Source of the DNA: Candidatus Gottesmanbacteria bacterium
Lineage (GTDB): Bacteria > Patescibacteriota > Microgenomatia > UBA10105 > UBA927
Assembly: GCA_963701185.1 (NCBI GenBank)
Contig: OY969569.1
Span: 549,486 to 613,485, forward strand
Direction: 5' to 3'
DNA length: 64,000 nt
Shown here: piece by piece, positions 37,395 through 59,200 of the stretch
Layout: each line of letters starts with the position of its first letter
Numbering within the stretch: the first letter of the stretch is position 1
The notes under the pieces: generated by a model
Databases searched by the model: none
Seen by the model: the letters and a program-made list of their open reading frames with translations, nothing else
Told to the model about the DNA's origin: nothing
Position numbers and translations under genes: made by a program

Positions 37395-37398
37395 AAGG

Positions 37399-38256: not shown

Positions 38257-38261
38257 ACATC

Positions 38262-38303
38262 TAGTATTGCGTATTGCGTATCGGGTATCAAGTATCAGGT
38301 GTC
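38262..38303. repeat. Six tandem imperfect heptamers (TTGCGTA TTGCGTA TCGGGTA TCAAGTA TCAGGTG TCAAGAG) in the 5' region of the galT-like gene.
   Basis: Seen directly. A 7-nt period with the core TYRNGTA. Confidence 0.6.
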
Positions 38304-38314
38304 AAGAGAAGAGG

Positions 38315-38743: not shown

Positions 38744-38763
38744 AGTTCTCCATATATACCACA

Positions 38764-39716
38764 CTAAACAAATTTATTCAACAATTCCTTGGCTTCCGAC
38801 TGTTTTTCCGGCGTCACGAGAACCTCGACTAATCCCTGTCCGGGCTGACCGTAATAGACGACGGCCCCGGGCGGTCCGTAGGCAATGGCGGGAAGCGCCA
38901 GAAGATCTTCTTCCCCGGTCACCGTCAGCACCAATTTCTCTTCCGGATGCAGGCTCCATTTTTTAATGACGTCTATCGCCTCCTGGGCGATAAATCCGGG
39001 GCCGCTTGGCACATGAATGCGGAAAATACCTAAACCCGCAAACCGTCCGTCCAACTCCGGATAGGGTTTGCGCTCCACCTGAAAATCAATAATGGAAAGA
39101 GACGGGATGACACCGGCAGTCAGAAATGTTTTGGTCGTAATATCGCCCACGGTGACAATAACGCCGCTCCGGTGGGCTTCGATCGAGCTTCCTATGGCGT
39201 CGCCGATAAGAATCCTGCCTACAGGCTTCCCAAGCTCCGGCCGCATGGTATCCGGTAGAATCAACCGGCCTGTTTTATCAATCTCTCCGTCGCGAACTCT
39301 GGTTGATGAGATCGGTACTGCATCCGCAGCCGGCACAAGCGGAACAAGGAGTAGTCCCAACGGTGCCAGACCTTTTTCCTTACGGATGCGGTTTATTTCC
39401 CCGCCGCGCGATGTATTGTCCGGGGTGACCACAAGCACCTCGAGGTCGTGAGGCTCGCCGCCGGCTCGTACGGGTCGTCGATGGAAAGTATCATCGTCTT
39501 ATCACTATATCCGTTGCTACTCAGCCATTGTTCCAGATCCGCCTTACGATCTGAAAACGCCGAAATCGCATGATCTTTCTTGAATCTGGCAACAAAGGTA
39601 TCTGACGTGAGGCCTATGGTCACATTCTCCCCCGCCTCATACGCCGCAGTCAGAACAGCCTCATGGCCCGTATGGAGTCTGTCAAACGTGCCGGCAACAA
39701 GTACACGGTGGTACAT
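38764..39716 (-). CDS. coaD: Phosphopantetheine adenylyltransferase (archaeal-type cytidylyltransferase) fused to a GTP-dependent dephospho-CoA kinase (DUF359), interrupted by a frameshift near 39440-39460.
   Basis: Upstream frame: VLVAGTFDRLHTGHEAVL (nucleotidyltransferase HxGH). Downstream frame: DLEVLVVTPDNT...ISSTRVRDGEI (PPAT C-terminal motif) then GRILIGDAIG...IVTVGDITT...GVIPSLSIIDFQVERKP (the DUF359 pattern). The frames switch within the GC-rich run GCCGGCGGCGAGCC. Confidence 0.6.
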
Positions 39717-39757
39717 GAGGTAATAGTACGATGAAACAAAGCGGGAGTAAAGAACAC

Positions 39758-40216
39758 CTACGGTCCTATTTCGTTTATGTACTCGCGATATCGCGATTCA
39801 TATCGATGATAAAAGTCACGTTCTTCAGCGGATAGTCCTTTTTTTCCGGATAATCTTTCCATTTTTCCCATAATGTCCGCCTCAACTGTGTGTATTTGAT
39901 CAAGAACCGTTCCGATTAATCCCCCGTGGGGAGGGAAAACACCAATTTGATCCACACGTGTACTGACCCCTTTTTCAACATCAAAAATTGTGGTTCTGCG
40001 TATCTCACGAATAAAGCCACCTTCCATATGAATACCGCCTGACGTTCTCAAATGTCTTAATGCGTCGTCAAAATATATCGCCAGTTCCGGATGGCGTTCT
40101 TCTATGAATGCTTTTGTGTCTTCGTAGTTTTGTCCGTAATGACCCTCTTGGACTTGGTGTTCTCTCGGCATAGGATTTGTATCCCATAATATATCATTAT
40201 GTACCTGCGGAGTCAA
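39758..40216 (-). CDS. Hypothetical protein.
   Basis: 152-aa ORF, operonic with its neighbours. No recognised motif. Confidence 0.45.
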   Translation of the reverse strand: MTPQVHNDILWDTNPMPREHQVQEGHYGQNYEDTKAFIEERHPELAIYFDDALRHLRTSGGIHMEGGFIREIRRTTIFDVEKGVSTRVDQIGVFPPHGGLIGTVLDQIHTVEADIMGKMERLSGKKGLSAEERDFYHRYESRYREYINEIGP

Positions 40217-40220
40217 TAAT

Positions 40221-41060
40221 TTAGGGATACATCAAAGAAGCACGGAACAAAACTGAATGAAACTGTGATGCTTTGGCCAAGGTAAGGTAAGGTTCAAGAC
40301 GGGAATTTTTGAATGAATTTAAATAATCTGCAAACTGCTGTATTCGATCAAGAATTTGTCTGGCTTCTTTAAAATATCCGCCTTTAATATCCATTTCCCC
40401 TTTCTCAAGCATATCAAGAAGTATTTTGTTGGATTCTGTCATTTCACCTTTAAGAAGACGATGAATATCCGTTTCTGTAATACGTTCGTCAGGCCTACGA
40501 AGAGCTATCGGAGCATATCTCTTTGCTGCTCTTGCGATTTCCGCTTCAGTTATTTTGTAGGCTGCTGCTATATCACCTGAATTTTCCTTTTTTGCCATAA
40601 ACTCAAACATGCCCCGCCACTGAATAAAGCCGGGTGCGGGAGAGCCTGTGAAGGGCATGGAGAGAAAATACCCTGTCCTTTTTTCCGGGATGAGATTACG
40701 ATCGTCGTAATGAACAGGGATAATGCAAATATTTCCGTCCTGAAAAAAAACGGGTTTTATACGGTTGTCAGCGGCGGAAACCTCGGTAACAAGGGAACCT
40801 CCGCGTTCTGCACGAAGACGGGAATGTATCCCGGTGAGGATAGGATTATTCGGATCGGATTGTACTTTTATTGTCGTCTCCGCCAGTTTTTGAAAAACAT
40901 TCCTGAAACGTAGAGTGGTGTTTTTTGCCGCGTGATGGATATCTGAAATCGTGTGAGGGGCAATAATTTCCCAGTTTCTGCCTTTGAATGCCAAAAGCTC
41001 TTTACTTCGGGGTAATAGATCTTCAACGATGCCAACAGTATTATTTGGTTTTTCCGTCAT
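40221..41060 (-). CDS. Hypothetical protein.
   Basis: 279-aa ORF at the head of the minus-strand cluster 37399-41060. No recognised motif. Confidence 0.5.
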   Translation of the reverse strand: MTEKPNNTVGIVEDLLPRSKELLAFKGRNWEIIAPHTISDIHHAAKNTTLRFRNVFQKLAETTIKVQSDPNNPILTGIHSRLRAERGGSLVTEVSAADNRIKPVFFQDGNICIIPVHYDDRNLIPEKRTGYFLSMPFTGSPAPGFIQWRGMFEFMAKKENSGDIAAAYKITEAEIARAAKRYAPIALRRPDERITETDIHRLLKGEMTESNKILLDMLEKGEMDIKGGYFKEARQILDRIQQFADYLNSFKNSRLEPYLTLAKASQFHSVLFRASLMYP

Positions 41061-41088
41061 AGTTTTTCTGATTTTACCTTATAGTATG

Positions 41089-41412
41089 TACTGCATGCAA
41101 ATGGATATCCGGCTGTATACAGAGTATACTATGCGCGGTATGACACCTAATGAAAAACAGCCAAACAGCGTTCGGCACTACTTTGAAACAGAGGTATATC
41201 CTGAACATGCTGCTGCCATAAAGGCAGCAGAAAAGAAAAAAGTCCCTCATTTTATTCCTCGCCGCCGCAGCAGGCATGAAGATGAACCCATGCAAACGAG
41301 GTGGGATTGCGGATGTGTCACGACCCTCGCCCCTGATGGGACAATTCTTCGCTCGCAATGCGGAACTGACGATTGCCTCTATGACCAGGGCATGGCCAAC
41401 AGAGTAAAATGA
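41089..41412 (+). CDS. Possible small Cys-containing protein, hypothetical.
   Basis: The only substantial + frame in the 41061-41460 gap. Starting at an internal Met avoids overlap with the divergent gene. Weak call. Confidence 0.3.
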   Translation, partial: YCMQMDIRLYTEYTMRGMTPNEKQPNSVRHYFETEVYPEHAAAIKAAEKKKVPHFIPRRRSRHEDEPMQTRWDCGCVTTLAPDGTILRSQCGTDDCLYDQGMANRVK

Positions 41413-41460
41413 ACAAAGCTCCCCCTCGTTTTTCCCTCTGGTATCTTTTATACTGAGTAC

Positions 41461-42123
41461 ATGCATCCCTTTGCCCAATACCTCGATTTTGCCAACCACC
41501 GAGCCAGTGCGACGCCCGCGGATATCGAGAACCTATGCGCATCAGTCGTGGAACATGGTTTCCACGCGGCTTTTATGAATGCGTGCTATATTAGTCCCGC
41601 CCACACCAAATACGCGGCGGGACTAAAAATCGGAACGGTGGTAAGTTTTCCGCTGGGCCAGGATACGGTTGCCGCAAAGGTGGCCGCGACCAACGAAGCG
41701 GTGCAACTGGGCGCGGACGAACTGGATATCGTCCCCAATATCGGCACGTTCCTCTCCGGCGACACCGACGGGTTTGTGGCGGAAATGAAAGCTATTGTTG
41801 ACGGCGCACGGATGGTAGGTCAGCCCGTGATCGTAAAGTTTATTCTCGACCCCGGGTACATAACTACCCCGGATCAAATGAAACAGGCCGCACTGGCAAT
41901 CCAGCAGTCCGGCGCGGATTTTGTCAAAATAGGAAGCGGCATGGGGCCCAGAGGCCCGTCCGTTGAGGATGTAAAAATCGTGCGGGACGCAGTCGGTCCG
42001 GATATGAAAATTAAAGTCGCCGGAGGCATTGATACCTACGAAGAAGCCAAGGCATTCATCGACGCGGGAGTGGTCCGTATCGGCACGTCGCACGCGATAG
42101 ACATTGTATGCGCAAAAAGATAA
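41461..42123 (+). CDS. deoC: Deoxyribose-phosphate aldolase family.
   Basis: TIM-barrel class I aldolase pattern. FVKIGSG matches the Schiff-base Lys region (FVKTSTGF) of DeoC, with C-terminal VRIGTS. Confidence 0.8.
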   Translation: MHPFAQYLDFANHRASATPADIENLCASVVEHGFHAAFMNACYISPAHTKYAAGLKIGTVVSFPLGQDTVAAKVAATNEAVQLGADELDIVPNIGTFLSGDTDGFVAEMKAIVDGARMVGQPVIVKFILDPGYITTPDQMKQAALAIQQSGADFVKIGSGMGPRGPSVEDVKIVRDAVGPDMKIKVAGGIDTYEEAKAFIDAGVVRIGTSHAIDIVCAKR

Positions 42124-43463
42124 CGTCCGTTGAGATTGCCGTTTTTGTCGCCATAGGCCTCATTGCAATCCTTTTAAACCGCATGGGGGTCCGCTTTGAT
42201 TTACGTCTGCGGGCCACCGGAATTCCGGCAAATATTGTCGTTTCGACGAAAACCGGACTGACCCCCTTCCCTACCGCGTTTTACCATGCATTTGCCCAGG
42301 GAGGCGAAGAAAAAACGGACATGCTTTCCCCGGTTGCCTCTGCCGTCCGCGCACTCAAGCCCGCATACATCCGCATTGATCATATTTTTGACAGCTACCG
42401 CGTGGTGCACAAAGAAAACGGCACCCTCACGTTTGATTTTACCCGGCTGGATCGGACTGTCGATACGATCCGTGGCACCGGCGCAACCCCGGTCCTTTCC
42501 CTTTCCTACATGCCCGCGGCAATTGCAAAAGACGGAATCATCACCAATCCACCGGACAATTGGAATGATTGGGTGTCGATTGTGCGGGAGACAATAGAAC
42601 ATTACAGCGGCAAAACCAATAAAAATCTCTCCGGCGTGTATTATGAAGTCTGGAATGAGCCTGACCTGCCGCAGTTCGGGAGCTGGAAAACCTACGGCAA
42701 CAAAAATTATCTCACCCTGTACGGCTATGCCGCCGACGGCGCCAATTCTGCCCGCAATGTCAATACGTTTTATTTCGGCGGACCTGCAACAACAGGACTG
42801 TACAAAGATTGGGTCACGGCCATCCGTAAAACCGGCTCCCGTATGGATTTCGTGAGCTGGCATATATATAACAGCGACCCGAAACGTTTCAGCCGGGACC
42901 GGCAAACCGCAGGCGAATGGGGCATTCCGACACTCATCACCGAATTCGGATTCACCGGGAATAAAGATGAACGCTATGGCACAACGTATGGGGCCGCCTA
43001 CATGGCTGCGGTCATCCGGCAGATCGTTTCAGACCCGCCGGCCGGCTTGTTTACCTTTGAACTGAAAGACGGACCCGCGGATACGACTGACGGATGGGGG
43101 CTTTTGCCGCATGAAAACGCGGGAGGAGATCCAAAACCGCGGTATCAGCTCTTTCCCCTGCTGGATGAATTATCCGGCGACATGCTGCAGGTTTCCGGCG
43201 AGGGCACGTGGGTGACGGCGATCGCGTCTACCCGCAGCGGCACCGTCAGGACGCTTCTGGTTAATTTCCATCCCGACGGCAACCACTCCGAAAACGTCCC
43301 CGTCACATTTACCGGACTTATCCCAGGGCAATACGCGTTCCGGCAGTACCAACTTTTGGGTCACGATGCAACAATACGGGTAACAATTCCTGCGGAAAAC
43401 TGGCAGACAAATGTCTTCATGCCTCCCAATGCCGTCACCCTCCTGACACTGACGCGTTTGTGA
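42108..43463 (+). CDS. Membrane-anchored clan GH-A glycoside hydrolase (GH39/GH5-like).
   Basis: N-terminal TM helix. YYEVWNEPDL (NEP acid/base Glu) and ITEFG (nucleophile Glu) are spaced as in GH-A enzymes. Confidence 0.65.
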   Translation: MRKKITSVEIAVFVAIGLIAILLNRMGVRFDLRLRATGIPANIVVSTKTGLTPFPTAFYHAFAQGGEEKTDMLSPVASAVRALKPAYIRIDHIFDSYRVVHKENGTLTFDFTRLDRTVDTIRGTGATPVLSLSYMPAAIAKDGIITNPPDNWNDWVSIVRETIEHYSGKTNKNLSGVYYEVWNEPDLPQFGSWKTYGNKNYLTLYGYAADGANSARNVNTFYFGGPATTGLYKDWVTAIRKTGSRMDFVSWHIYNSDPKRFSRDRQTAGEWGIPTLITEFGFTGNKDERYGTTYGAAYMAAVIRQIVSDPPAGLFTFELKDGPADTTDGWGLLPHENAGGDPKPRYQLFPLLDELSGDMLQVSGEGTWVTAIASTRSGTVRTLLVNFHPDGNHSENVPVTFTGLIPGQYAFRQYQLLGHDATIRVTIPAENWQTNVFMPPNAVTLLTLTRL

Positions 43464-44086
43464 GGCGTTCGATGGCGCCTGCGACATTGGCAGGGTCTTT
43501 GAAGATAAAACTTGTGGAAACCAGCCGCGTAGCACCCGCTTCCGTCACCACACGTACGGTCTTATCATTTATTCCCCCTGAAACTTCTATCGGGAGGTGG
43601 GGTAAATACCTGCGGATCGATTTAATTTTTTCCAGACACTCCGGTAAAAACGCCGCGCCGGAAAAGCCTGCTTCCACCATCATCACCAAAACAAAGTCCA
43701 CTTCCTCCAAAAACGGCTCAACGGTCTCAAATTCCGTGGGTCCGTCGATGGCGATACCCACCTCTACTTCTTCATGTTTCACCGCATCCAAAAAAAGCCG
43801 CGGATCATGTGCTTCAACATGGGCAATAAGCCGCCTGAAACCGGCATCCGCGGCCGGTTTTATGTATTTTTCGGGGGATGTGACCATGAAGTGGGCTTCC
43901 AATTGGGGAGATAAGGGTGATAAGGGGAAATCGGGAAAAATCTAAAAATGTTGTATTGGGTACCATCGTGTTATCCGCAAACTCAATCTGCACCCAGTCA
44001 ACAAGACCTGTCACCAGGCGAATTCTCTCCTCGATCATTTCCCACTCTTTTTCTAAAATTCCGGGGATGATATCAATTGTGCTCAC
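43435..44086 (-). CDS. rpe: Ribulose-phosphate 3-epimerase, split by a frameshift near 43905-43912.
   Basis: The N-terminal ORF (44086-43814) has IIPGILE...WVQIEFADNTMVPNTTFLDF. The C-terminal ORF (43902-43435) begins LEAHFMVTSPEKYI (Rpe LDVHLMV block) and has GADFV-like and GGIN blocks. The frames switch at the CCCCAATTGG homopolymer. Confidence 0.65.
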
Positions 44087-44158
44087 TTTGGAAGTTTATT
44101 GCCCAATGCTTCGTCCCACTTCGTCCCGCATGGCGGGACTTCGCGGGACTCATATTGT

Positions 44159-44470
44159 TTATTTAGGTAACTTGTTACTTAAACTTTCGTATGCGCCGTC
44201 CAGCTTGGTGAACGTCTCATCGCCCATGGCATCCTGTGCCCAGGCCACCGACAGTAAACTGCGTACGCCCGCGACACTCCCTGCGGCATCGCGGAGTTTC
44301 ATATCGCGCTCACGTCGGTCCCGGCGCGATACGCCGTCCGCGATGATTGTAAGGGTTTTGAGCCCTAACTTCTGTGCCCGCTCGATAACTTCGTTTTCCC
44401 CTCCCAGAGCACAAAGGTCTAATACCGCCGTATACGACATCTGCCACAGTTTATCGTCATGGAAACTCAT
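44159..44470 (-). CDS. Hypothetical 103-aa protein downstream of the PAS protein.
   Basis: An ORF 19 nt after the PAS-protein stop. No recognised motif. It could be a detached output domain. Confidence 0.4.
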   Translation of the reverse strand: MSFHDDKLWQMSYTAVLDLCALGGENEVIERAQKLGLKTLTIIADGVSRRDRRERDMKLRDAAGSVAGVRSLLSVAWAQDAMGDETFTKLDGAYESLSNKLPK

Positions 44471-44489
44471 GAGTAGAATTATAACACAC

Positions 44490-45257: not shown

Positions 45258-45310
45258 AACCTACGGCATCAGTATCACACGATAAAAAGTGTTTTGCAAG
45301 ACACATTTGC

Positions 45311-45712: not shown

Positions 45713-45734
45713 AAAACGTATTATAATACAAGCG

Positions 45735-46349
45735 ATGTCAAAACCATACTATTCCGTCATTCTCCCGATCCGCAACGAGGAAGAATCCCTGCCGCAGCTT
45801 TTTGCCGAAATAGAACAGGCGTTTGCCGGAAAACAGTATGAAATCATTGCCGTCGATGATGCATCGGGGTATGCCGATCATCCGGGAAAATGGGAGGCAC
45901 TCCGGGCCGGCATAGACCGGGCAAAGGGATCGGTTGTCATCACGATGGATGCGGACCTCCAGGACGATCCAAAGGAAATAAAAAAACTTCTTGTACCCGG
46001 TTTTGATGTGGTGTCCGGATGGCGTTCCCCCCGCAGGGATGCATTCTATAAAATTGTCCTCACCCGTATCGCCAATCTCCTCTTCGGATTTAAAGATTTT
46101 TCAAGTCCCTACAAAGTCTATCGAAAAGACGCACTTGCCCGGCTTCCGAAAGAAGGATCACTCCTTCGGTATTCATATCTTTTTGCCCGCAAATTCGGCA
46201 TGCGTATTGTCGAGGTGCCGGTTTCTCATCGGCCCAGATTGTACGGAAAATCAAAATTCGGAGTTATCAAATACTTCCGGATTTTTTATGATCTAGTCCT
46301 CCTCTCTTTGCTATTTCGCGGATCAGGAAGACTGGAGAAACGTATATGA
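45735..46349 (+). CDS. Family 2 glycosyltransferase (polyprenyl-phosphate sugar synthase / DPM1-like).
   Basis: YSVILPIRNEEESL, AVDDASG, and VVITMDADLQDDP (DxD) blocks. Confidence 0.8.
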   Translation: MSKPYYSVILPIRNEEESLPQLFAEIEQAFAGKQYEIIAVDDASGYADHPGKWEALRAGIDRAKGSVVITMDADLQDDPKEIKKLLVPGFDVVSGWRSPRRDAFYKIVLTRIANLLFGFKDFSSPYKVYRKDALARLPKEGSLLRYSYLFARKFGMRIVEVPVSHRPRLYGKSKFGVIKYFRIFYDLVLLSLLFRGSGRLEKRI

Positions 46350-47443
46350 TTCCCGTATCCCGACCGCTTCCTGCGCCACACACGCAATCATATCTTATTG
46401 ATTGTGCGCGATCCGGCTGGTTTTCGTCTCACGGACCGTATGTAGCGAGGTTTGAACAGGCATTCGCCTCATACCTGGGTATTTCCCATGCCGCAGCTGT
46501 CCCCAGCGGCACCGCCGCACTACATCTGGCTCTTGCGGCCCTGGATATCCATAAAGGAGACGAAGTCATCGTCCCCACATTCACGATGTTTTCCCCGGTT
46601 GCGGCAATTCTGTATACCGGTGCCACACCGATCTTTGTCGATAGTGATCCCCGTTCATGGACACTCGACGTGACCCACGTTGCACAAAAGATAACGAAAC
46701 GGACCCGTGCAATTCTTGCTGTCCACATCTACGGTCATCCGGCGGACATGGATCCGCTCCGGGCACTCGCCAAAAAACACAATGTCTTTCTTATCGAAGA
46801 CGCTGCAGAAGGGTTAGGCGCGCTCTATAAAGGAAAAAAAGTCGGAACACTCTCAGATATCGCGTGTTTCAGCTTTTACGCAAATAAGCTGGTCACGACC
46901 GGCGAAGGCGGTATGGCGGTAACTAATAGTATACGTCTTTATACCCGCATCAAGAGCCTTGCGGACATGGCCTACCACCCGAAAAAACGGTTTCTCCATA
47001 CGGATCTGGGATTTACATACCGGATGAGCAACATGCAGGCTGCGGTAGGCCTCGCCTATCTTGAAGAAATTGAGAAAACGATTCAGAAAAAACGCGCGAT
47101 TGCATCGTTGTACAACCGGCTTTTGACAGACGTGCAGGACATTACCAGACATGAACAGGAATCCTGGGCGTCGCCCGTATGGTGGATGTACGGCATTCTT
47201 ACCCCCAATCGCGATGAGGTGAGGAAGAAATTATTTGCGCACGGCATAGATACCCGTGATTTCTTTGTTCCCTGCCACCGCCAACCGGCTCTCGGCAAAC
47301 TCGGGGTCCGTGCATTCGGACACTTTCCTGCTGCAGATATGCTCTCTGCCCGAGGCATCTATTTGCCATCAGGACCTGCTATCGACGACCGTGATATCCG
47401 TACGGTCTGCCGAGCGATCAAAAAAATCTATGCAGCGTTGTAG
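46346..47443 (+). CDS. DegT/DnrJ/EryC1/StrS-family PLP-dependent sugar aminotransferase.
   Basis: The VPSGTAALHLAL and ILAVHIYGHPADMD blocks and a FSFYANKLVTTGEGG (PLP Lys) block, typical of ArnB/WecE-like enzymes. Confidence 0.85.
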   Translation: MIPVSRPLPAPHTQSYLIDCARSGWFSSHGPYVARFEQAFASYLGISHAAAVPSGTAALHLALAALDIHKGDEVIVPTFTMFSPVAAILYTGATPIFVDSDPRSWTLDVTHVAQKITKRTRAILAVHIYGHPADMDPLRALAKKHNVFLIEDAAEGLGALYKGKKVGTLSDIACFSFYANKLVTTGEGGMAVTNSIRLYTRIKSLADMAYHPKKRFLHTDLGFTYRMSNMQAAVGLAYLEEIEKTIQKKRAIASLYNRLLTDVQDITRHEQESWASPVWWMYGILTPNRDEVRKKLFAHGIDTRDFFVPCHRQPALGKLGVRAFGHFPAADMLSARGIYLPSGPAIDDRDIRTVCRAIKKIYAAL

Positions 47444-48626
47444 ATTGTGTGGTCATCAGACAAAAGCATTTCTTGATTTAGGGCGCGTGCCGCTCCCGGA
47501 AGAATTCCGGCTGAAAAAAGATAGAGAAAAACGCATCATCACCTATCCCCTGGGGCTTTCCTATTGCATCCGCTGTTTCCATGTACAGCTGACACGACCC
47601 GTCGGGGCGGATCCTATTTACAAAAATAATTATTTTTATGATTATTCCGTTACCGCGGCAGGACGCGCCCATTGGCAACAGTTAGCACGACTCCTGGGGA
47701 GCACGCTCACCAAAAAAGATCTTGTCGTTGATGTCGGCAGTAATACCGGTACGCTGTTATCCTATTTCAAAGCGTCGGGCTTCCGAATTCTCGGCGTGGA
47801 TCCGGCGGGAAAATTGGTCCGTATCGCCCGCGCAAACGGTATTCCCACCATCAACGCATACTTTACTCCCGCGATAGCACAAAAAATAGTGAAACAATAC
47901 GGCCGGGCACGTGTCATTACGTGCACGAATGTTTTTGACCACGTTGCGGAGCTTGACCGGATCACCAAAGCGTTCCGGCTGCTTTTGGCACCCGGCGGCA
48001 CCCTTGTTATTGAAGTGCCCTATTTCTACCGAATGCTTACAAAATGTACTCATATTGTCTACCACCAGCAAATCGACTATATGATGCTTACCCAACTCGT
48101 TTCGTATTTCCGATCATTCGGTTTGACGGTCGTTGATGCCCAGGAAATCCCTCTCCACGGCGGTTCGATGCGACTCTATGTGAAACATAAAGGAAACGCG
48201 ACCAAACGCCTCGGACAACTTCTTGTCCATGAGAAAAAAATCATATCGCAGTATCCAAAAAGGCTTGTGCAATTTGGCGAACGGGTACTCCATCAACGGG
48301 ATGCCTTTGCGACCGCCATCAAAAAACTCAAAAAACAACACAAAACGATCGCCGCCGTCGGGGCATCGGCCAAAGGCATCACGCTTCTGAATTATTCCGG
48401 TCTGGGGCCCACAGACATCGCTTTTATCACCGAAAAATCTCCGCTTAAAATCGGACGGTTCACGCCAAACGGCATACCGGTTGTGAAGGACGGTATTCTT
48501 CTGACACGCCAACCCGACTATGCCATCCTCCTTTCCTGGAATTTTGCAGGAGAAATCATGGGTCATCTTACATCTTATACCGGACACTGGATCATACCTG
48601 TCCCTTCCCTACGGGTACTATCATGA
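47430..48626 (+). CDS. SAM-dependent sugar C-methyltransferase-like protein with an N-terminal zinc ribbon.
   Basis: MQRCRLCGH...CIRCFHVQL Cys4, VVDVGSNTGTLL (SAM motif I), and the C-terminal domain typical of NDP-hexose C-methyltransferases (TylC3-like). The start is at an internal Met overlapping the DegT 3' end. Confidence 0.65.
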   Translation: MQRCRLCGHQTKAFLDLGRVPLPEEFRLKKDREKRIITYPLGLSYCIRCFHVQLTRPVGADPIYKNNYFYDYSVTAAGRAHWQQLARLLGSTLTKKDLVVDVGSNTGTLLSYFKASGFRILGVDPAGKLVRIARANGIPTINAYFTPAIAQKIVKQYGRARVITCTNVFDHVAELDRITKAFRLLLAPGGTLVIEVPYFYRMLTKCTHIVYHQQIDYMMLTQLVSYFRSFGLTVVDAQEIPLHGGSMRLYVKHKGNATKRLGQLLVHEKKIISQYPKRLVQFGERVLHQRDAFATAIKKLKKQHKTIAAVGASAKGITLLNYSGLGPTDIAFITEKSPLKIGRFTPNGIPVVKDGILLTRQPDYAILLSWNFAGEIMGHLTSYTGHWIIPVPSLRVLS

Positions 48627-49612
48627 ATATTCTGTTTTTATCCCGGAAACGATCACAAGATATCGGTGGATTAAGCCGGTTTATCCTGGAGCTTACCCGC
48701 TATTTTCCCGACACCGACTGGCGGCGCCACATTGATTGTATTCACACGACAGACGCGACACTCATGCTGTTGGGCGTCTTTCTCAAACTATTATTCCGGG
48801 CTCCTCTTACGGTTACCGCCCACGGCAAAGATATAACGTGGCCCAACGCGATCTATCAAAAGATATTCTTCCTCTGCAGTCCATTTGTCAACGCGTGGGT
48901 CGTTGACAGCGAAGCTGCAGCTACTTTGCTCAAACGAAAGGGCGCCAAAAACATTCACATTATCGCGCCCGGCATCTCTGTCAATCACATAAAACAACAT
49001 ACACCGCTTGCACGTCCTGCATTTGACGGGAAAACGATACTGACAACTGTCGGAAACCTCGTTCTCCGCAAGGGTCATGTGTGGTTTATCCGACATGTTC
49101 TTACAAAACTCCCGTCACGCTTCATATATATAATAGTCGGAGCGGGAAAAGAGGCAAAACGCATCCATGAGGCGAGTGTACAAAAACGTGTACACCAGCG
49201 TGTTTTTTGTTTAGGGCAGCTGGACAACGGATACCTTGCATGGCTTTTTACCCGCGCACATATTTACGTCGCTCCGAATCAGCACGTTCCGGGTGATTTT
49301 GAAGGATTTGGCATCGCGGCCGGTGAGGCAGCGGCCATGGGACTTCCGGTGCTGGCAAGTCGTATTGACGGCCTCCCTGCGGTTATTCATCACAACAAAA
49401 ACGGGCTGCTCGTCCAAACAACACCGAACGCGTGGGCTCGCGCCATTCTGTCTATGGAATCCCCCAACGCACGCACCGCCTTAGGAGCAAAAGCACGAAG
49501 ATATACAAGGGTACACTTTTCCTGGAAAAAAACGGTCAGAGAGTATTCCGACCTCTTCCGAGAAGCCGCCGGTAAAAGGAAATTGTCCCCGAAGCGGTTT
49601 TTTCCCACGTAA
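48623..49612 (+). CDS. Family 1 (GT4-like) glycosyltransferase.
   Basis: C-terminal EGFGIAAGEAAAMGLPVLASRIDG (E-x7-E GT4 motif). Confidence 0.75.
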   Translation: MNILFLSRKRSQDIGGLSRFILELTRYFPDTDWRRHIDCIHTTDATLMLLGVFLKLLFRAPLTVTAHGKDITWPNAIYQKIFFLCSPFVNAWVVDSEAAATLLKRKGAKNIHIIAPGISVNHIKQHTPLARPAFDGKTILTTVGNLVLRKGHVWFIRHVLTKLPSRFIYIIVGAGKEAKRIHEASVQKRVHQRVFCLGQLDNGYLAWLFTRAHIYVAPNQHVPGDFEGFGIAAGEAAAMGLPVLASRIDGLPAVIHHNKNGLLVQTTPNAWARAILSMESPNARTALGAKARRYTRVHFSWKKTVREYSDLFREAAGKRKLSPKRFFPT

Positions 49613-50672
49613 GCAGACGGGCCTTTTGGCGGCTTACTTCACCAAATTTTGTCCGGTTTTTAAGCGAGTTTTCAATCTTTTTCGCCAACTCGTGAGGGTC
49701 CGTGGGTTCAACGATGTACCCATTCTCCCCATCTTTCAAAATATGAGGGTCTGCTGCGTCCGGCGAAAGTAACAGTGCCAAACCGTAAGCTGCAGCTTCA
49801 TGTGCGGCGAGAGCGACCCCCCCTTCGGCGACTGACGGAAGCACAAAAATATCGGCTGCAGAGAAATACGGCGAGGCGTCTTCAATAAATCCAAGAAACC
49901 GGGCGTTTGACGGCGCAATGGATTCCAAAATTTTCCGCTCTTTCCCTTGTCCGATAATAACCCCTGCAACATGTTTACGTTTTTTTTGAAGAAAAGCAAG
50001 TGCATGCAGAATCGTGTCGACATGTTTACGGGCAACCAGACGCCCTACGTAAAGAATCACTGCCGGTCTCCCGGGTATGGCGGGCCTGTTGCGACGCTGT
50101 TTTCGAACCCGGGGCGCAGCCAAAGGAACGACAGACATTGCTTGACCCGCGAGTGTATAGCGTTTGACAACATATTGCTTTTCACTTTCCGTATGGAACA
50201 GAAGCCCGTCGGCATGGTGAAAAATAAATGACTCCGCCATAATAAGAGGTTGATATATCGATCGTTTTATCGGCGGCGCGTACTGCGCCATTTGGTCCCA
50301 CGTATTATGTACGGAAACCACTATCCGACCGATATTTTTCGGACGAAAAAGAAGAAAAAATAGTGCGGTGAGTTGATTCGCATGTAGTATATCAAATTGT
50401 TTAGTATGATATCGTACTATAAAGTAAACATACTCTAAAAATCCTAATAACAGCTGGTTGCCAAAACAAAATGGCACCAGGTGAATGCTGACCCGCCGAA
50501 CTGATTTCCAGTAGTGCTTCCGATTGCCCCGTTGCTCCGCAAGCACGGTGACGTTCATCCCTTCCCGGGCCAAATTGGTCACTAATTCCTTCCCCCACAC
50601 CCCCTGTCCGCCGATAAATGACGGATAAAAGTCTTCCGTAGCAAACAGTACCCGCAGCGCGTTTTTTTTCAC
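49536..50672 (-). CDS. Family 1 (GT4-like) glycosyltransferase.
   Basis: LFATEDFYPSFIGGQGVWGKEL N-terminus. C-terminal SVAEGGVALAAHEAAAYGLALL and NGYIVEP. Confidence 0.75.
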   Translation of the reverse strand: MKKNALRVLFATEDFYPSFIGGQGVWGKELVTNLAREGMNVTVLAEQRGNRKHYWKSVRRVSIHLVPFCFGNQLLLGFLEYVYFIVRYHTKQFDILHANQLTALFFLLFRPKNIGRIVVSVHNTWDQMAQYAPPIKRSIYQPLIMAESFIFHHADGLLFHTESEKQYVVKRYTLAGQAMSVVPLAAPRVRKQRRNRPAIPGRPAVILYVGRLVARKHVDTILHALAFLQKKRKHVAGVIIGQGKERKILESIAPSNARFLGFIEDASPYFSAADIFVLPSVAEGGVALAAHEAAAYGLALLLSPDAADPHILKDGENGYIVEPTDPHELAKKIENSLKNRTKFGEVSRQKARLLTWEKTASGTISFYRRLLGRGRNTL

Positions 50673-50704
50673 ACCGCTAGTGTACCATATGGTATACTTC
50701 GCCC

Positions 50705-51370
50705 ATGACTGGGTACCGTTTCACTGAACACATAAAAGGGTATGCCTTGGGCGCGACGCTTCAACCCTGGAGGCCGCAATTTACCACAATCATCTCATGG
50801 GTGCCGGAAGGATCACGTGTACTTGACATCGGCTGCGGCGACGGCGTTTTGGGTGTAAAACTCATCCGGGAAAAAAACTGCCGCGTGTGGGGATTTGACC
50901 TGGATCCGACCGGTGTAGCGGAGGCAAAGCGTAAGGGGGTCCATGCCGTCACTCACGATGCCAACATGTCATTTCCCTACAAAGCCCGGCAGTTTGATAT
51001 CGTCATCTGCAACGAACTGTTGGAATTTGTTTCCGACCCGAATCTGGTCGTCTCCGAAGCCCTGCGGGTTTCCAAAAAAACGGTCATCATGGAGTTTCCG
51101 AATTTCGGATTTTGGTTGTACCGGCTGGAGCTGCTTTTGGGCCGATTCCCGCGGCTTGCCCTCTACGGCCACCGGTGGTGGAACACCCGGCAGATAAAAT
51201 TTTTCAGCTACCATGATTTCCTTTCATTGCCGGTCATGAAAAAAGCATACGTGTCCCGTATTGCCGGCATAGACTGGCGCAACCGCCGTGTAAGTTGGTT
51301 TGCTTCCCGCTTCCCGAATTTTTTTGCCCGCAGCGTCCTTATCATACTGGAGAAAAATACCCGCCTGTGA
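50705..51370 (+). CDS. Class I SAM-dependent methyltransferase.
   Basis: VLDIGCGDGVLG motif I and the DIVICNELLEFV motif II/III region. Confidence 0.7.
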   Translation: MTGYRFTEHIKGYALGATLQPWRPQFTTIISWVPEGSRVLDIGCGDGVLGVKLIREKNCRVWGFDLDPTGVAEAKRKGVHAVTHDANMSFPYKARQFDIVICNELLEFVSDPNLVVSEALRVSKKTVIMEFPNFGFWLYRLELLLGRFPRLALYGHRWWNTRQIKFFSYHDFLSLPVMKKAYVSRIAGIDWRNRRVSWFASRFPNFFARSVLIILEKNTRL

Positions 51371-52038
51371 CGACAACGATTCTTATTATCGCCAAAAACG
51401 AATCGCGGGGCATCAGGCACATCATCCGGTCGGTGAAACCATACGCGGATGAAATTATTGTCGTTGACGGCCGTTCCACCGATGCCACGGCAACGCTCGC
51501 TCAAAAAGAAACCGGTATTGTGCTCTCCGATCATGGGAAAGGCCGCGGCGACGGCGTAAAAACGGGACTGGCGGCGGCATCGGGAGATATTGTCGTCCTT
51601 TTTGATGCAGACGGATCGCATAATCCGAAAGATATCCCGACACTGACCGCACCCATCAGGCACGGAAAAGCGGATATTGTCATCGGATCGCGCCGCACAG
51701 GAGGAACGCTTGATACAAATAAAGGAGTGGACAGCCTCATCCGCTCTCTGGGAGCCGACATATTTGCCTATCTGGTGAATCGCCGGTTCGATACGCAATT
51801 CACTGATATCCTGTTCAGCTTCCGTGCAGTCCGGCGGCCCGTCGTACCTATTCTGCGTCTTACCGCCGACACATTCGCCATAGAACAGGAAATGGTCATC
51901 TCAGCACTGCGCCATCGCCTTCGGGTCCGGGAAATACCCATGAGGGAATTTGCACGTGCGTGGGGCAGCTCAAAACTGGCGACAAAAACAGGTATTGGGC
52001 TTCTCGTTACACTTCTGTGGCAGTTATGGGGACCGTGA
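51367..52038 (+). CDS. Family 2 glycosyltransferase.
   Basis: ILIIAKNESRGI, IIVVDGRSTDAT, and VLFDADGSHNP (DxD) blocks. GTG start overlapping the upstream stop (GTGA). Confidence 0.75.
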   Translation: MTTTILIIAKNESRGIRHIIRSVKPYADEIIVVDGRSTDATATLAQKETGIVLSDHGKGRGDGVKTGLAAASGDIVVLFDADGSHNPKDIPTLTAPIRHGKADIVIGSRRTGGTLDTNKGVDSLIRSLGADIFAYLVNRRFDTQFTDILFSFRAVRRPVVPILRLTADTFAIEQEMVISALRHRLRVREIPMREFARAWGSSKLATKTGIGLLVTLLWQLWGP

Positions 52039-53548
52039 CAGATCGTAAAGATATAAATCCGCGTTATCACTGTGCACCGCATCCTTCATGGCCCCCATAC
52101 GGGTAAGCTGTCCGAGAAAATATTTTTCTTCGTCCACCGGTCCCCAGTTGTAGACGTGAGAAAATAATACCCACACGCGGGGGTTTCCCCGTAATTTTGC
52201 AAGATCTTGTGCATACGCAGAGAGATCTGTCGTCCGGGAAATCCCGACAACATACTCTGATGGTTGTATCCCATACCGGTCAGAGTAATAGGAAAACGCA
52301 TAGGCGCTGGCATAATACAAATACAACGTATCACCGGTTTTCCGGTGCGTTTGGTAATAGGAAAGAAGCGGGGTAATAACCTCAAACCGTTCCGGATGCT
52401 GTAATCTGTAGAAACCCAGGTAGGATGTATTGATGACGAGTCCTGCCACAAGCAGCGCGCTTACCACACGCATGCTTACCCACGGACCATGCCATGCCCA
52501 CACGCCGATCTGCCACAATCCGTACGTCATAAGAAGGATCAGTCCCGGGGAAAAAAACAGCAAAAAACGTCCGGAAAAAGGATAGTAGTGCAGTGCTGAT
52601 GCAACAAACGCCAGAAAAAGCGGCAGAAATAACAGAACCAGCAGTTTTGGTTTGGTGCGGGAAAGATACCACGCGCCCACCGTCACGCTCACGACCCCGA
52701 TCGGCCAAAAATCGATGCCTCCGGGCCGGCGGAAAAATTGTACCACGGTATCCGCATACCACGCCCAGTCCGCAACCGACCGGATGGGAAACGGGGCATA
52801 AAAATCTGTCCAAACGTCCCGGTAGCGTCCGTAGTAGGCGCCCAGGGTGATGCCGCTTTGAACAAGAAAGCTTATCAGCCATCCCATACTTATCCCTACC
52901 CACACAAAAAACAGACGTCCGTTTCTCTTTGTCAGACTGTCTATCATTCCGACTATTCCGATTGCCGCTAATATAAAGACGATCGCCTGCGAAAACCACA
53001 GGCCCGACTATCCCCAACATACCTATGGTCGCAAGCATACGGCCCGTTGGTTTGTGGGTAGTGATAAATATCCGAACAGACAGCAAGGTAAGAAATACCC
53101 CGACGGTCATATCCAACGCGTACGGTTTCACTTCAGATGCATAATAGATAAGAGGCGCTGAAAAAACAAAAAGCAGCAGCGCCATATGCGCAAACGCCAC
53201 CGGCAGGACATCAAGGGCCAAAGCCGCCATCCCTCCCAGCGACACAAAACTGACAACGAGCGGAAATGCACGTAAGACAAACTCATCTTTCCCCGCGAGC
53301 GTTACCAGAAGTTTCTCAATGATAAGAAACCCGATCGGCGCCTGCTGTTCATACTCCAGGGGAGCAAAAAGGCCGCTGAATGATCGTGTGAGAATGTTCA
53401 TCGTCAGCATAGCCTCATCAAGCCATAACGGACGATGGGAAAGATACTGGGAGAACCGGAGAAGAATTCCCGTCACAATAAGTATCCACAGAAGTTCTGC
53501 GGGGTGTTTTCGCATAAAATTACTGTAGACCTTCAACCTGAATGACAT
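52024..53548 (-). CDS. Polytopic GT-C type glycosyltransferase (GT39 / PMT- or ArnT-like), split by a frameshift near 52990.
   Basis: The N-terminal ORF (53548 down to about 52995) has 5-6 TM helices and becomes low-complexity nonsense after about 190 aa. The in-frame hydrophobic continuation FSQAIVFILAAIGIVGMIDSL joins the second ORF. The switch is at GTGGTTTTCGCAGG. Confidence 0.55.
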
Positions 53549-55602
53549 GTATTAATTTTGCACAACCGGTATGTGTTATGTCCCAAAACCGTACTGTGTC
53601 GCCTGCCGTACCGGGAAATGAAAGCGTGGCTGATACATCGGAAGATTGAGAAATCCACGGAATCATATAGGTTTCATTTTTCCCGTCGCCGATACTCCAG
53701 ACGAGGTTTTGTTGAGTAATACACCGGATATCGTCTGCCGATACGGAAACATTCAGTATCCGAAGGGCATTGGGAATACGAACGTCCACCCGATCGGTCC
53801 CGCGAAATACTGACGTCTTCGCACGCAGTACGTCTGTTCCGATCGTTTGCCGCGTACCCGTCATCTTTGTGTGCGTACTGTCATTTTTCCAAATTTTGGC
53901 GATCACGACGCCGTCCACTTTCACCTCGTACACCGGCTTAACAAACGTTTCCAGATAGTTATAGGGAAAAACTGCCGGCGGTTTAGGATAGACAATGGAA
54001 GCGATGTATTCCCCTTTCCCGTCAAATCCGGAAAAATACGACCCTATCCGTATGTCCGGCCGAAGCCAGGTCGGCGAAAGAGCAAGCATCGTGCCATCCA
54101 GATGTGCCAAACGTGCATCTTTTTGGGCATGGGCATCCATCCATGACGCAAGCTCCCGGTATGGCGCATCATAAAGCGTTTCCCACGTATACAATCCGAC
54201 GGATTGGGCCCCTTTGAGACCTCCGATAAACGAATTGAAATAGAGGTGTTCATAGGGATGCAGCCGGACCAGCAGCACCACGTGCACGAGGATAAACATG
54301 CCAAAAAATATTCCGTAGAAGATACGCTTTCTTACGCGCTTCAGTATCCATGCACTCCCCGCCCCGACCAATACGGCAAATGCGGGGAGAAACTCCATAA
54401 AATGTCTGATCGATCCGAATACTTCGGAGGTCTGCCAAATAACGCGAATGAAAGGCACAATAAACCAAAGAGCGATAAGCAACCCCGTCGCATTTTTCGC
54501 GGTATATTTTTCTGAATATCAATCCGACGGCTCCTAGAGATGCCAATATCAGCATAATTGGCGGCGACATGGAAAAGAAAAAAAGCACGGCCTTGGCGTC
54601 AAACCCGCCGAAGAGCGGGGTCGGAGACGGCTGTTGTACCCGCAGATCCCGTACGGCAAGCGTTGCATAATAACTGAAGGTATTCAGAAGTTTATATACT
54701 GTTTGTGTCCAATAAAACGGATATGCAAGAATAAGGAGGATAAACGGGATGATGACGCAAAGGACGCCATACAGAATTAATTTTCGGAACGTAAAACGCG
54801 TATGTAATTCAGACGTATACCATATCCATATGGTCCACGGTACCAATGCAATCGGCGCAAATAGAATATTCCATTTTGTCCCCAATGCCATAAAGACCGA
54901 AAGTATGCACAACACGAGCCAATCGACGGACAACCGTCTGGTGACGGTAAAATACCAGGAAACTACTGCCATCGTGTAAAATCCCATCTGCACCGGATCT
55001 TTGATATTAAAATGGCTCTCCGCAAATATCACGGGATACATTGCCAGAGATACGACCGCTATGATTGCGGCAAATCGTCCAAAAGCATCCTCAACGAACA
55101 GATAGACGAATACCAATGATAGTGCAACGACGATAAGAGAATATACCTGATATCCGTCCACGTCCGACAGAACGCCGAGCCATTCATATGTCACCCGGTT
55201 GACCGCCGCCATAAGCATGTCGGATACGGCAGGATGTCCCTGATTTTCCGTAAGCTCCCATATGTTTGCTGTCCACGCATCGTTCTTATAGATGCTGATG
55301 CGGCGGCCTGCGGCAGTTTCTTTATTTTGATATGGAGAGATTTGCACGACAGGAGAAAAGAGTTCTTCTGACGCATTCGGCTTATAGACAGAAATCCGCT
55401 GCCCGGGGGTAAACATGACCGGAGAACGGGCGGCAGGGATACCAAACTGTCCGGACCTCCCCAGGATACGCTCCAAAAAATATTGCCCGCGCAAAAAATG
55501 GAACGGGCTGTCCTCATGCATGCCGTAGTGGGACATGGTTCCCACACCAACAATAAAGAAGGCTCCGGCGAGAATCCATGGAAGAAATTTCTTCATAAAC
55601 AC
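53520..55602 (-). CDS. Second polytopic GT-C (GT39/PMT-like) glycosyltransferase with a large C-terminal extracytoplasmic domain, split by a frameshift near 54480-54540.
   Basis: The N-terminal ORF has more than 9 TM helices and DE-containing first-loop motifs, and its tail after GLIFRKIYRE is nonsense. The second ORF continues in frame upstream of its TTG (KNATGLLIALWFIVPF). The switch is at AAAAATGCGACGGGG. Confidence 0.55.
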
Positions 55603-55662
55603 GTATAGACTATAACAAATTTTGGTACAAATTTGTAAAAACTATGAAACCCAGCCTCATGT

Positions 55663-56283
55663 CTATGGACCGCCGGCAGATAGCGTGGCTGACGCTGAAG
55701 CTTCCACGGTTACGGTCGGGACCAGTGTGGGGATGGCGGACGACGTTGCGGTTACGCCAAGGATATCCGAGACCGGTGGTACAAGAAGAGTCGACGTCGA
55801 ACCGGTTCCGTCTATACTCTTCCCCACAATCGTCCTCCCGCCGGAAACCGTCAGGGCAAACCAGTTGTATGTCAAATCCCGCGGCACCGGACCGTTAAGG
55901 ACTATGCTAAAGCCGCTGGTTGTGACATTGGTTACGGCGGCCTGCACGCCCTCGGCAAGAAATGCGCTGTTTGAAGCTTGCGGCAACACCAACGTAATGG
56001 TGACAATAGGCGGTGTATCAAAGGAACGTTCAAACGGTACGTCGACACTCATGGTGGACTTCGGAATGACCGCAATACCAGCCGAGTCTGAACCTACCGT
56101 CACGTGTCCCTGGAATATGACATCACTCAATACTTTCAGCACACCGTTGACGGTTACCTGCCCCTGAACAATAAGATCCTGTACAAATGTCGCAATCGCA
56201 TTAACAACAAACGGCCCGTTAAATGTGCTTGCTCCGGAGGCCACTATGTCGCCCGTAACTGCAAGTCCACGGGTGGTAAACAA
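55663..56283 (-). CDS. Probable frameshifted C-terminal continuation of the collagen-like giant protein (beta-helix-like repeats), or a separate small paralog.
   Basis: It overlaps the giant ORF's last 40 nt in another frame. The [23 protein letters not shown] / [10 protein letters not shown] segments resemble the giant protein's C-terminal [27 protein letters not shown] units. Confidence 0.45.
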
Positions 56284-59200
56284 GATCCGACATGTTGGGC
56301 ACTTGCCGTCGCAAGCGTACTATATAATGCAGACAGATTTGAAAGTGTGTCGGAATAGATTTCAAGTCCTTCAATCTTGTTGGCCCGGATGCTATCCGCT
56401 GTCACCATCCCTTTAAATACGGCGTTCCCTGAACTATCAACGGTAAAGATATCCGCTCCCGCATTTCCTTTCACCGCCAACAATCCGTTCTCCGGCGCCA
56501 GTTCAATGGTAAGCGCATTGTTGATAGGCCGAATGACGTTAAGTCCCACCGTATTGATTTTCGCTTGCTGGGATTCTATAAACCCGGCCTTTAAGTTTGC
56601 GATGACGCTTTGCGCCCACGCAGAAACAGCGCTCACGGGAGACCCTGTCTCTGTCTTTGCCTGATACGTGGTAAAGTAATCGACATTTGCATCCGGATAG
56701 AGGAGCACTTTGTTTAACATGTCCCCGGTAAGGTCACCTTGACTGGCCAGCTCATACCAATCGGTTTGAACTCTGGCAAGCACCATACCCACGTCTGCGG
56801 GAAGCGATTGCTGCGGCGCATCAGGGTCCCGCGTTTCCACTCCGGTCCACGGTTCCAGGGCCCAGCCGACAATCCTGCCCGTGGTCGTGGCTCTTGCGGC
56901 TATCCCGGACACTGAAGATATTGTCAAAGGATCGCCCGGCGAAACGGGACCATTTTCAAGGGATGTTTTCACCCACACCTGACCGAGCATACCGACGTCT
57001 GCATACCGCGGGTCGCCTTTTTTCGTTAACTCTTCCCACCCTTGCTGTACATAATCATTAAATCCTGTCCCGCGGGTGGTCACAACACCCAACATCCAAT
57101 CTCTGGAATTTGCATCCGCTTTTGTTACTTTGTACGTTGAAGAGCGGGATACCATCATGACATCGCCGGGCTCGCTTCCTCCGACGGGATCCTGATCGAA
57201 ATATTCTGAATAGTCAGCCCAGCTGTTGACTCCCGACTTAAATGTGTATGAATTGGAGCCGCTGCGTATCCAAATACGGCCGCTGGTTGCGGCGGTACCG
57301 ACGTTCCCCAGTTTCAACTCTCCGCTTACCACGTTTGTGGCAGCAGGTGCCGCACCGTTATTATCAAAAAAGACCACGTGCGTATCCGCCACGGTGTTAC
57401 CGAGGTTAATGGTGGTTGCGTTGGCACCTGTTGCCGTTCCAGTACCAATATTGACCGTCACGATACCGCTTGCAGGACTACCGGTACCGATATTAAGTGT
57501 ATTTGCGACATTTCCTGTACCAATGGAAATGATTTTGGCGTTAGCGCCAGTGCCAATCGAGAGCGCACCTGTTCCGTTGGTATCAATAGAAAGAGTCTCA
57601 TTGGCATCCGCGGTCGTGATGGTGGCACCGGCATCTCCTGCATAACCCAAAGTCAGATCATCGGTATAGAGATCTGTTGCAATAGCTGCATCCTGATAGA
57701 GATACGTTCCACCGTCAATCCAATAATTTACACCGCTACCGGTAGCTCCAGTGGGGCCGGCGGGTCCGGCCGTTCCCGTAGCGCCGGTTGATCCTGATGG
57801 ACCGGTAGCCCCGGCCGTTCCCGTGGCTCCTGTTGCACCTGTGGGGCCGGTAACTGCCGCACCCTGATTTCCCGTGGCTCCGGTAGAGCCTGTGGGACCA
57901 CCTGTTCCGGCTGATCCGGTTGCTCCGGTAGAGCCTGTGGGACCAAAGTTTTGTCCGGTTGGACCGGTAGCGCCGGTGGGACCATTGGCCCCTACACCTC
58001 CACCTGTTCCAGTGGCTCCGGTTGCACCTGTGGGGCCGGAAGAACCGACACCGCCTTGTGTTCCTGTCGCGCCGGTTGCGCCTGTGGGGCCGGAAGAACC
58101 GACACCGCCTTGTGTTCCTGTCGCGCCGGTTGCACCTGTGGGGCCGGAAGAACCGACACCGCCTTGTGTTCCTGTCGCGCCGGTTGCGCCTGTGGGGCCG
58201 GATCCGCCTGCGGTTCCCTGGGTTCCCGTGGCTCCGGTTGCGCCTGTGGGGCCGGATCCGCCTGCGGTTCCCTGGGTTCCCGTGGCTCCGGTTGCGCCTG
58301 TGGGGCCGGAAGAACCGACACCGCCTTGTGTTCCTGTCGCGCCGGTTGAACCGGTGGGACCGGAGGATCCCGCGGTTCCCTGGGTTCCCGTGGCTCCGGT
58401 TGCGCCTGTAGGACCGGATCCGCCTGCAGTTCCCTGCGTTCCCGTGGCTCCGGTATTACCTGTGGGACCCGATCCTCCCGCTGTTCCCTGAGTGCCCGTG
58501 GCTCCGGTATTACCTGTGGGACCGCCTGCTCCGCCTGTACCGGCTGATCCGGTGGCTCCGGTGGCTCCGGTTGAACCACTAGGACCAGTCGCACCTGCAG
58601 CTCCGCCTTGTGAACCGGTTGGACCGGTTGCGCCGGTTGGACCGCCTACACCATTTGCACCTGTGGAACCCGTTGGGCCATTAGTTCCTGTGCCTCCGGT
58701 TGAACCGGTGGGGCCACCTGCTCCGCCGCTTCCGGCAGTTCCCGTGCCTCCCGTTGAGCCTGTGGGACCGGATCCTCCGGCTGTTCCTTGAGTACCCGTG
58801 GCGCCGGTTGACCCTGTGGGACCGGATCCTCCGGCTGTTCCCTGAGTACCCGTGGCGCCGGTTGAACCGGTGGGGCCACCTGCTCCGCCGCTTCCGGCAG
58901 TTCCCGTGCCTCCCGTTGAGCCTGTGGGACCGGATCCTCCGGCTGTTCCTTGAGTACCCGTGGCGCCGGTTGACCCTGTGGGACCACCTGCGCCCGCTCC
59001 ACCTGCATTACCTGTGGCACCAGTTGAACCTGTGGGACCGTTACCGCCGGTGGCGCCTGTTGAGCCTGTGCGTCCTGTTGGGCCATTGGCACCTGCTGAT
59101 CCCGTGGCGCCGGTTGAACCGGTGGGACCGGAAATTCCGGCAACTCCCGAGGCACCGGTTGCACCTGTGGGACCGGATCCTCCGGCTGTTCCCTGAGTAC

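Follow-up and report, generated by a model that had tools for sequence, protein, structure and literature searches.

The stretch of DNA analysed here (the window) comprises 64,000 nt of the genome of Candidatus Gottesmanbacteria, a member of the Microgenomates within the candidate phyla radiation (CPR), and positions are given in the coordinates of the whole stretch. Five of its genes are split by a change of reading frame: a gene for fused phosphopantetheine adenylyltransferase (PPAT) and dephospho-CoA kinase (DPCK; site 1), the ribulose-phosphate 3-epimerase gene rpe (site 2), two genes for GT-C glycosyltransferases (sites 3 and 4) and a giant gene for a collagen-repeat surface protein (site 5). 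Their coordinates, and those of two larger segments discussed below, are collected in Table 1. An inspection of the letters alone (the sequence-only reading) had claimed five gene interruptions within 39430-56290, and this is borne out, in that the paired open reading frames (ORFs) at each site align to single intact proteins. Four of the breaks are 4-17 nt away from the places that it gives for them, and four of the five sequence contexts quoted with them do not hold the lesion.

Table 1. Frameshifted genes and associated segments of the window
Feature	Coordinates	Strand	Remarks
Fused archaeal-type phosphopantetheine adenylyltransferase (PPAT) and GTP-dependent dephospho-CoA kinase (DUF359); site 1	38764..39716	-	317 aa when repaired; split by one missing base at 39446
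Block differing from co-occurring strain L001	39424..43902		Holds all 8 single-nucleotide differences and the sole indel; 32109-39423 identical
Ribulose-phosphate 3-epimerase (rpe); site 2	43435..44086	-	About 216 aa when repaired; split by one extra base
Glycosylation island, about 9.9 kb	45772..55662		Without counterpart at the L007 locus
GT-C-like membrane glycosyltransferase; site 3	52024..53548	-	507 aa when repaired; extra G or C in GGGCC at 53001-53005
GT39/PMT_2-family glycosyltransferase; site 4	53520..55602	-	691 aa from ATG at 55596 when repaired; extra A in A5 run at 54507-54511
Giant collagen-repeat surface protein with C-terminal H-type lectin domain; site 5	55663..60881	-	About 1739 aa when repaired; one base missing

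All five frame breaks are evident in three-frame displays of the sequence, and all are on the minus strand. Each shows up as a pair of ORFs, read in different frames, whose overlap ranges from a few dozen to a few hundred bases. Each break was tested with single proteins from other organisms, to see whether an alignment would continue over the junction. Proteins that align in this way were found at every one of the five sites, with both ORFs matched end to end by single intact proteins of relatives. Homologues of genes in the region come from Candidatus Gottesmanbacteria, and in NCBI and ENA the proteins of the window itself are recorded from just one contig, of 995,214 bp. One base per gene is altered, there being a base too many at sites 2, 3 and 4 (+1) and a base too few at sites 1 and 5 (-1). 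Apart from this single lesion both halves of each gene are free of stops, and they share 58-86% identity with intact orthologues across the junction; for the tail of the giant gene the homologues are 36-49% identical, and all are single ORFs. The comparison with orthologous loci in related genomes that the sequence-only reading had proposed as a check thus finds single ORFs at all five positions. Inspection of ORFs revealed no comparable lesions in the remaining 47 kb of the window; the statement that there are no other breaks also draws on tblastn searches with the proteins of the nearest relative (GCA_040960375.1, hereafter L007) and on 12 window proteins that are exactly identical in an independent assembly (Logan, described below). 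Two general causes were considered and set aside: an alternative genetic code, as the breaks are changes of frame and not in-frame stops, and a shared sequence or methylation motif, as the contexts contain CTCGAG, GGCC, GATC and CAATTG in turn and have nothing in common.

The ORFs at site 1 lie at 39393-39716 and 38764-39438. Left unrepaired, the upstream ORF corresponds to positions 2-60 of the Pfam profile CTP_transf_like, and the downstream ORF reads as some 100 unassigned residues followed by DUF359. In the repaired protein CTP_transf_like spans positions 2-132 of 133 over the junction, with DUF359 after it, and the scores exceed the cutoffs for both the NCBIfam archaeal-type PPAT (PRK00777; 147.8 bits, cutoff 104) and PF04019 (97.6 bits, cutoff 25). 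Both PPAT and DPCK (DUF359) are thus carried on one polypeptide, and the same 317-residue architecture is present as a single ORF in L007, in L009 and in the Logan contig L001. The lesion is the lack of one T at 39446, where the window has GG-TCG and L001 has GGTTCG (CACGA[A]CCTCG on the coding strand), a position some 10 nt away from GCCGGCGGCG, in which the lesion had been placed. In these bacteria (the window, L001, L007 and L009) the archaeal-type PPAT-DUF359 fusion replaces the bacterial CoaD and CoaE.

The independent assembly consists of three Logan contigs of run ERR10755943, which derive from the same population and are 99.92-100% identical to the window. Contig L001 covers 32109-43902 (99.92% identity over 11,795 nt, with 8 mismatches and 1 gap), while L002 (49708-52418) and L003 (59196-64000) are both 100% identical. 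Of the five break sites only site 1 is crossed by these contigs, and there L001 carries the PPAT-DPCK gene intact (317 residues); the lesion is therefore not shared by the Logan strain. Fragments produced by the frameshifts are on record solely from the source contig, and the 90% protein cluster to which the two site 1 fragments belong has the intact Logan protein as its other member. The repaired proteins of sites 2, 3 and 4 are absent from a collection of 15 billion proteins, and for these sites no intact allele of the same species is on record.

The differences between the window and L001 are unevenly distributed. All eight single-nucleotide polymorphisms (SNPs) fall within 39424-43666, a block of 4.3 kb, and the preceding 7.3 kb are identical. 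Six of the eight occupy codon position 3 and five leave the amino acid unchanged, a bias that marks them as real polymorphisms separating two co-occurring strains, with purifying selection at work; so high a ratio of frameshifts to SNPs thus does not resemble natural variation. Site 1 lies 19-22 nt from the first SNPs, so that two synonymous SNPs (39424 and 39427) and the deletion cluster within 23 nt. At both of these SNPs the L001 allele is that of the outgroup L007, and the window therefore has the derived state. L001 terminates at 43902, only 7-26 nt from site 2. An exact look-up of window proteins gives a similar division: all 12 tested at 10-31, 40.2, 42.1, 50.7, 51.4 and 60.9 kb are present in Logan, and of 14 others, from 39.4-39.7, 43.4-50.7 and 52.0-56.3 kb, none is; six of these 14 are frameshift fragments. 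At site 1 Logan carries the intact form of the gene, although the window fragments are absent there. The frameshifts thus fall in the stretch that, in that read set, is either polymorphic, badly assembled or not well represented.

At site 2 the ORFs are at 43814-44086 and 43435-43902, and the downstream half of rpe begins at position 60 of the 198 of the Pfam profile. The repaired protein contains the full-length domain, matching PF00834 with 117.4 bits over positions 2-198 of 198, and more than 100 homologues of about 209 residues are intact, including some at 78-86% identity, the best at 86%. Protein homology bounds the extra base to 43909-43928, and DNA alignment with L007 and L008 places the additional C best in the C4 run at 43924-43927. 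This run falls in a 9-nt repeat, CCC(C)TTATCA (CCCTTATCT), the repaired reading of which encodes PLSPLS. The CCCC at 43905-08, to which the break had been assigned, is a run of equal length in an intact relative by DNA alignment.

The GT-C-like gene at site 3 has no Pfam or NCBIfam match. Its downstream piece (327 residues, read from the codon after the preceding stop) matches 2271 proteins at E<=1e-10, and from residue 2-3 onward it aligns to residues ~176-501 of proteins of about 500 residues. Alignment with a 58%-identical protein (P0182) gives the junction as GIVG followed by LWFSQAIVF, which puts the lesion in GGGCC, 12 nt away from the GGTTTTC at 52990 that had been proposed. Past the junction the wrong frame stays open for 207 codons (52382-53005, minus strand). 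We considered whether this off-frame ORF might be an overlapping gene, and 130 of 5000 synonymous-codon shuffles equal it; its length is mildly unusual and probably due to chance.

For site 4, ten homologues of 693-712 residues cover 98-100% of the repaired protein, and tblastn matches switch frame at 54505-54511. At the junction the homologue P0121 reads GLMARKYAAKNRAG, as against GLIFRK followed by YTAKNATG in the window, and the lesion thus falls in an A5 run other than the one at 54493-97 that had been quoted as its context. A first scan of the genome collection with the repaired protein gave no match; an alignment-based scan of the collection recovered only relatives at 36-40% identity, all of them intact.

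Site 5 separates the main part of the giant gene (56244-60881) from an ORF of 206 residues with the H-type lectin domain (55663-56283). The missing base lies somewhere in 56271-56297, within a poorly conserved linker, and its loss splits off the last 206 residues. Eight homologues and the 2220-residue orthologue in L007 run as a single ORF from the collagen and tail region into the lectin domain. The giant protein has some 700 residues of collagen-like G-x-x repeats (GC content 0.67 at 58-60 kb), and comparison of the L007 orthologue (1490-8152) with the approximately 1739 residues in the window indicates that the number of repeats varies between relatives.

The genome of L007, with an rpe 86% identical to that of the window, is collinear with it, and its gene order is HTH-dCache, the giant gene, a 147-aa gene, a PAS protein, a 103-aa gene, rpe, DeoC, PPAT-DUF359, GalT and ribosomal protein genes. 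Sixteen L007 genes match the window at 31-45.7 kb by tblastn; only rpe and PPAT-DUF359 are split between frames, and the giant gene is the third case. Between the giant gene and a 133-aa gene the window has a glycosylation cluster where L007 has only about 200 nt, and on this comparison the cluster looks like a strain- or species-specific island. It contains an ArnC-like GT2, a DegT aminotransferase, a C-methyltransferase, two GT4 enzymes, a methyltransferase, a GT2 and the two broken GT-C genes. Sites 3 and 4 are thus inside the island, site 5 is some 0.6 kb from its edge, and sites 1 and 2 flank other variable segments; all five breaks lie in or beside sequence that is variable between strains or lacking in the relative, and they track the heterogeneity of the population.

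Another variable spot adjoining a frameshift site is found between DeoC and rpe, where a gene of the glycoside hydrolase family GH39 (42108-43463, plus strand) is absent from L007, which holds an unrelated 151-aa gene at that position. The ArnC-like GT2 of the island (45735-46349, plus strand; 204 residues) has no counterpart of ArnC residues 52-78, about 27 residues of the GT-A catalytic core that would stand between DDAS and GKWEAL, and it ends where the C-terminal membrane helices of ArnC would start. It may have undergone an in-frame deletion or truncation, or it may represent a form that is naturally short in the CPR.

The sequence-only reading had described the breaks as lying at homopolymer or simple runs, and had taken this clustering as the signature of indel errors. 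Two of the lesions do fall in short runs (C4 and A5), while one is in GGGCC, one in a dinucleotide and one cannot be placed; the changes are A2 to A1, C3 to C4, one within GGGCC, A4 to A5 and the unplaceable one, so that the runs involved are of 1-5 nt. The interval 39430-56290 has 1053 runs of at least 3 nt, 136 of at least 5, 48 of at least 6 and 16 of at least 7, and none of the 48 runs of at least 6 nt is broken. Errors at long homopolymers, the pattern looked for as a mark of artefact, were therefore not found. As 21% of the bases in the window sit in runs of at least 3 nt, and inserting a base beside one of the same kind necessarily creates a run, the link with homopolymers is weak, and it does not by itself diagnose platform error. 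An indel artefact remains the best single explanation of the breaks, albeit not for the reason of homopolymer clustering.

The shortness of the runs bears equally on the notion that the surface genes here are contingency loci that vary in phase by slipped-strand mispairing. Three of the five genes do concern the envelope or surface (the two GT-C transferases and the lectin-tipped giant protein), and sites 2 and 4, perhaps also site 3, are in mononucleotide runs, recalling the phase-variable glycosyltransferase and adhesin genes of Campylobacter, Haemophilus and Neisseria, where surface glycosylation genes are interrupted at homopolymeric tracts. Known contingency loci, however, use tracts of about 7 nt or more; those in the window are far shorter (3-5 nt), no tract of at least 7 nt is involved, and longer runs of the same genes are unaffected. 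Housekeeping genes are hit as well, rpe and PPAT-DPCK not being surface genes, and site 1 is outside any tract. We consider phase variation a very improbable explanation.

Two overlapping ORFs that jointly encode one protein are also the hallmark of recoding, as in the +1 frameshift of prfB and the -1 frameshift of dnaX, and programmed ribosomal frameshifting or transcriptional slippage would restore the full-length proteins. The +1 sites are in short runs at which slippage of a tRNA is conceivable (UUU-CCC-C, GGG-C and AAA-A), but such NNN-N runs arise simply because an extra base lengthens a run, and runs of A and C this short do not support efficient transcriptional slippage. Moreover, shifts in both directions would be needed, in five unrelated genes; the -1 junction at site 1 (CUC ACG ACC UCG) has no slippery heptamer of the form X XXY YYZ, unlike the canonical cases; no orthologue is frameshifted at any of the five positions; and the sister strain simply has an undamaged allele at site 1. 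Recoding of either kind is extremely improbable, and, judged from these sequences, we reject programmed frameshifting as a plausible account of the breaks. Recoding and phase variation taken together remain very unlikely.

A gene outside the five deserves mention in this context. The nucleoside hydrolase at 18182-19249 (minus strand; PF01156, profile positions 1-296 of 297) had been said to lack a canonical start, and we agree, finding no in-frame ATG, GTG or TTG ahead of the DPGIDDA motif. The interval from the preceding stop (19247-19249) to this motif offers only ATA and ATT, and a TTG at 19219-19221 is one base off frame. An identical truncated product of 252 residues is recorded in Logan, suggesting that the window sequence is probably correct at this point.

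A more serious alternative, albeit a rather unlikely one, is that the frameshifts are real and are very recent null alleles in one strain of the population; the sequence-only reading had itself allowed for real pseudogenes. The strain would be losing or switching off a flexible module of surface glycosylation and adhesin genes, and would also have lost rpe and PPAT-DPCK, while the co-occurring strain retains at least PPAT-DPCK. Several observations fit: the window is a distinct and real haplotype at 39.4-43.7 kb, with its codon-position-biased SNPs and the derived alleles beside site 1; selection may be relaxed in the flexible, island-associated sequence that carries the lesions; the ArnC-like GT2 has lost its ~27 residues in frame; the start-less nucleoside hydrolase has the same truncated product in Logan; and long homopolymers are spared in an assembly that is otherwise free of indels relative to Logan. 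The resemblance to recent pseudogenes in reduced or host-dependent genomes, such as those of Mycobacterium leprae and recent insect symbionts, is likewise real, in that genes are frameshifted in a genome of about 1 Mb, in an organism thought to depend on other cells, with a lesion in the GT2 of the island. Unlike such pseudogenes, those in the window would have one lesion per gene, include core genes, be intact in the sister strain (at site 1) and have SNPs nearby that reflect purifying selection on the same genes. Neither of the usual marks of a pseudogene, several lesions or relaxed constraint, was found; there is a single lesion in each gene, beyond which the downstream half is still open and conserved. 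Five independent frameshifts within 17 kb would all have to be too recent to have been joined by a second lesion, the two core genes are intact in every relative examined, and the ORFs of the other 47 kb show nothing comparable. That the sequence is correct, and comes from a natural strain which very recently inactivated all five genes by single-base frameshifts beside a wild-type sister, is thus unlikely; were it true, the window would capture gene loss in progress, or the switching off of surface structures, in a CPR population.

We therefore favour, as probable, the explanation that the five frameshifts are single-base consensus or assembly errors in a genome derived from a metagenome. The genome was probably built from long reads: its source is a single contig of 995,214 bp that spans about 2 kb of collagen repeats at which k-mer assembly breaks, and a contig of about 1 Mb through such repeats points to long-read data. 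Frameshifted gene calls are known to result from indels in long-read consensus sequences, above all where a bin has less than about 40x coverage (PMC9262707). In strain-variable or island sequence, where the sampled population is heterogeneous, the consensus may rest on fewer or mixed reads, and the errors would be concentrated there; the position of all five breaks in or beside such sequence supports this. Further support comes from the single lesion per gene, without further decay, and from the presence among the five of rpe and PPAT-DPCK, core metabolic genes for which every relative examined has an intact copy. We infer that sites 2-5 would be artefacts as well, with local coverage or strain mixing as the likely cause. 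The genes of the organism itself would then be intact, encoding PPAT-DPCK, Rpe, two GT-C glycosyltransferases and a collagen/lectin surface protein of about 1740 residues.

Several points weigh against an artefact. Direct support for it is limited to site 1, and there the intact allele is on a slightly different haplotype, with the two derived synonymous SNPs 19-22 nt away, so that the deletion could be a real difference between strains. Site 1 is also the single indel over the 19.3 kb that can be compared with Logan, from which it follows that the window is not generally unpolished or error-ridden, and every one of the long runs in the affected interval is unbroken. Finally, the lack of ~27 residues in the ArnC-like GT2 cannot stem from an error of one base, and it hints that the island is undergoing real decay.

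In other respects the window resembles the long-read metagenome-assembled genomes in which single-base indels split conserved ORFs into adjacent out-of-frame calls (Sereika et al., 2022; PMC9262707), with a very long contig that continues over repeats and with breaks that are more frequent where low coverage or poor strain purity is likely. It is unlike the classic pattern of long-read errors at long homopolymers, in that the runs concerned are of 1-5 nt and all those of at least 6 nt are intact, and unlike it too in that the breaks are clustered in 17 kb and not spread.

Frameshifted gene calls are routine in metagenome-assembled genomes, and the five breaks are most likely a warning about sequence quality and not new biology. 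Their practical use is as a quality flag on five split or truncated gene models, together with refined coordinates for their repair. If the lesions are real, they would represent strain-level gene inactivation in a CPR bacterium, which would be of moderate interest and not surprising. Taken at face value, the annotation would leave out two glycosyltransferases and the giant surface protein's lectin domain, and a metabolic reconstruction would wrongly indicate that this organism has neither Rpe, of the pentose-phosphate pathway, nor the two final steps of CoA synthesis.

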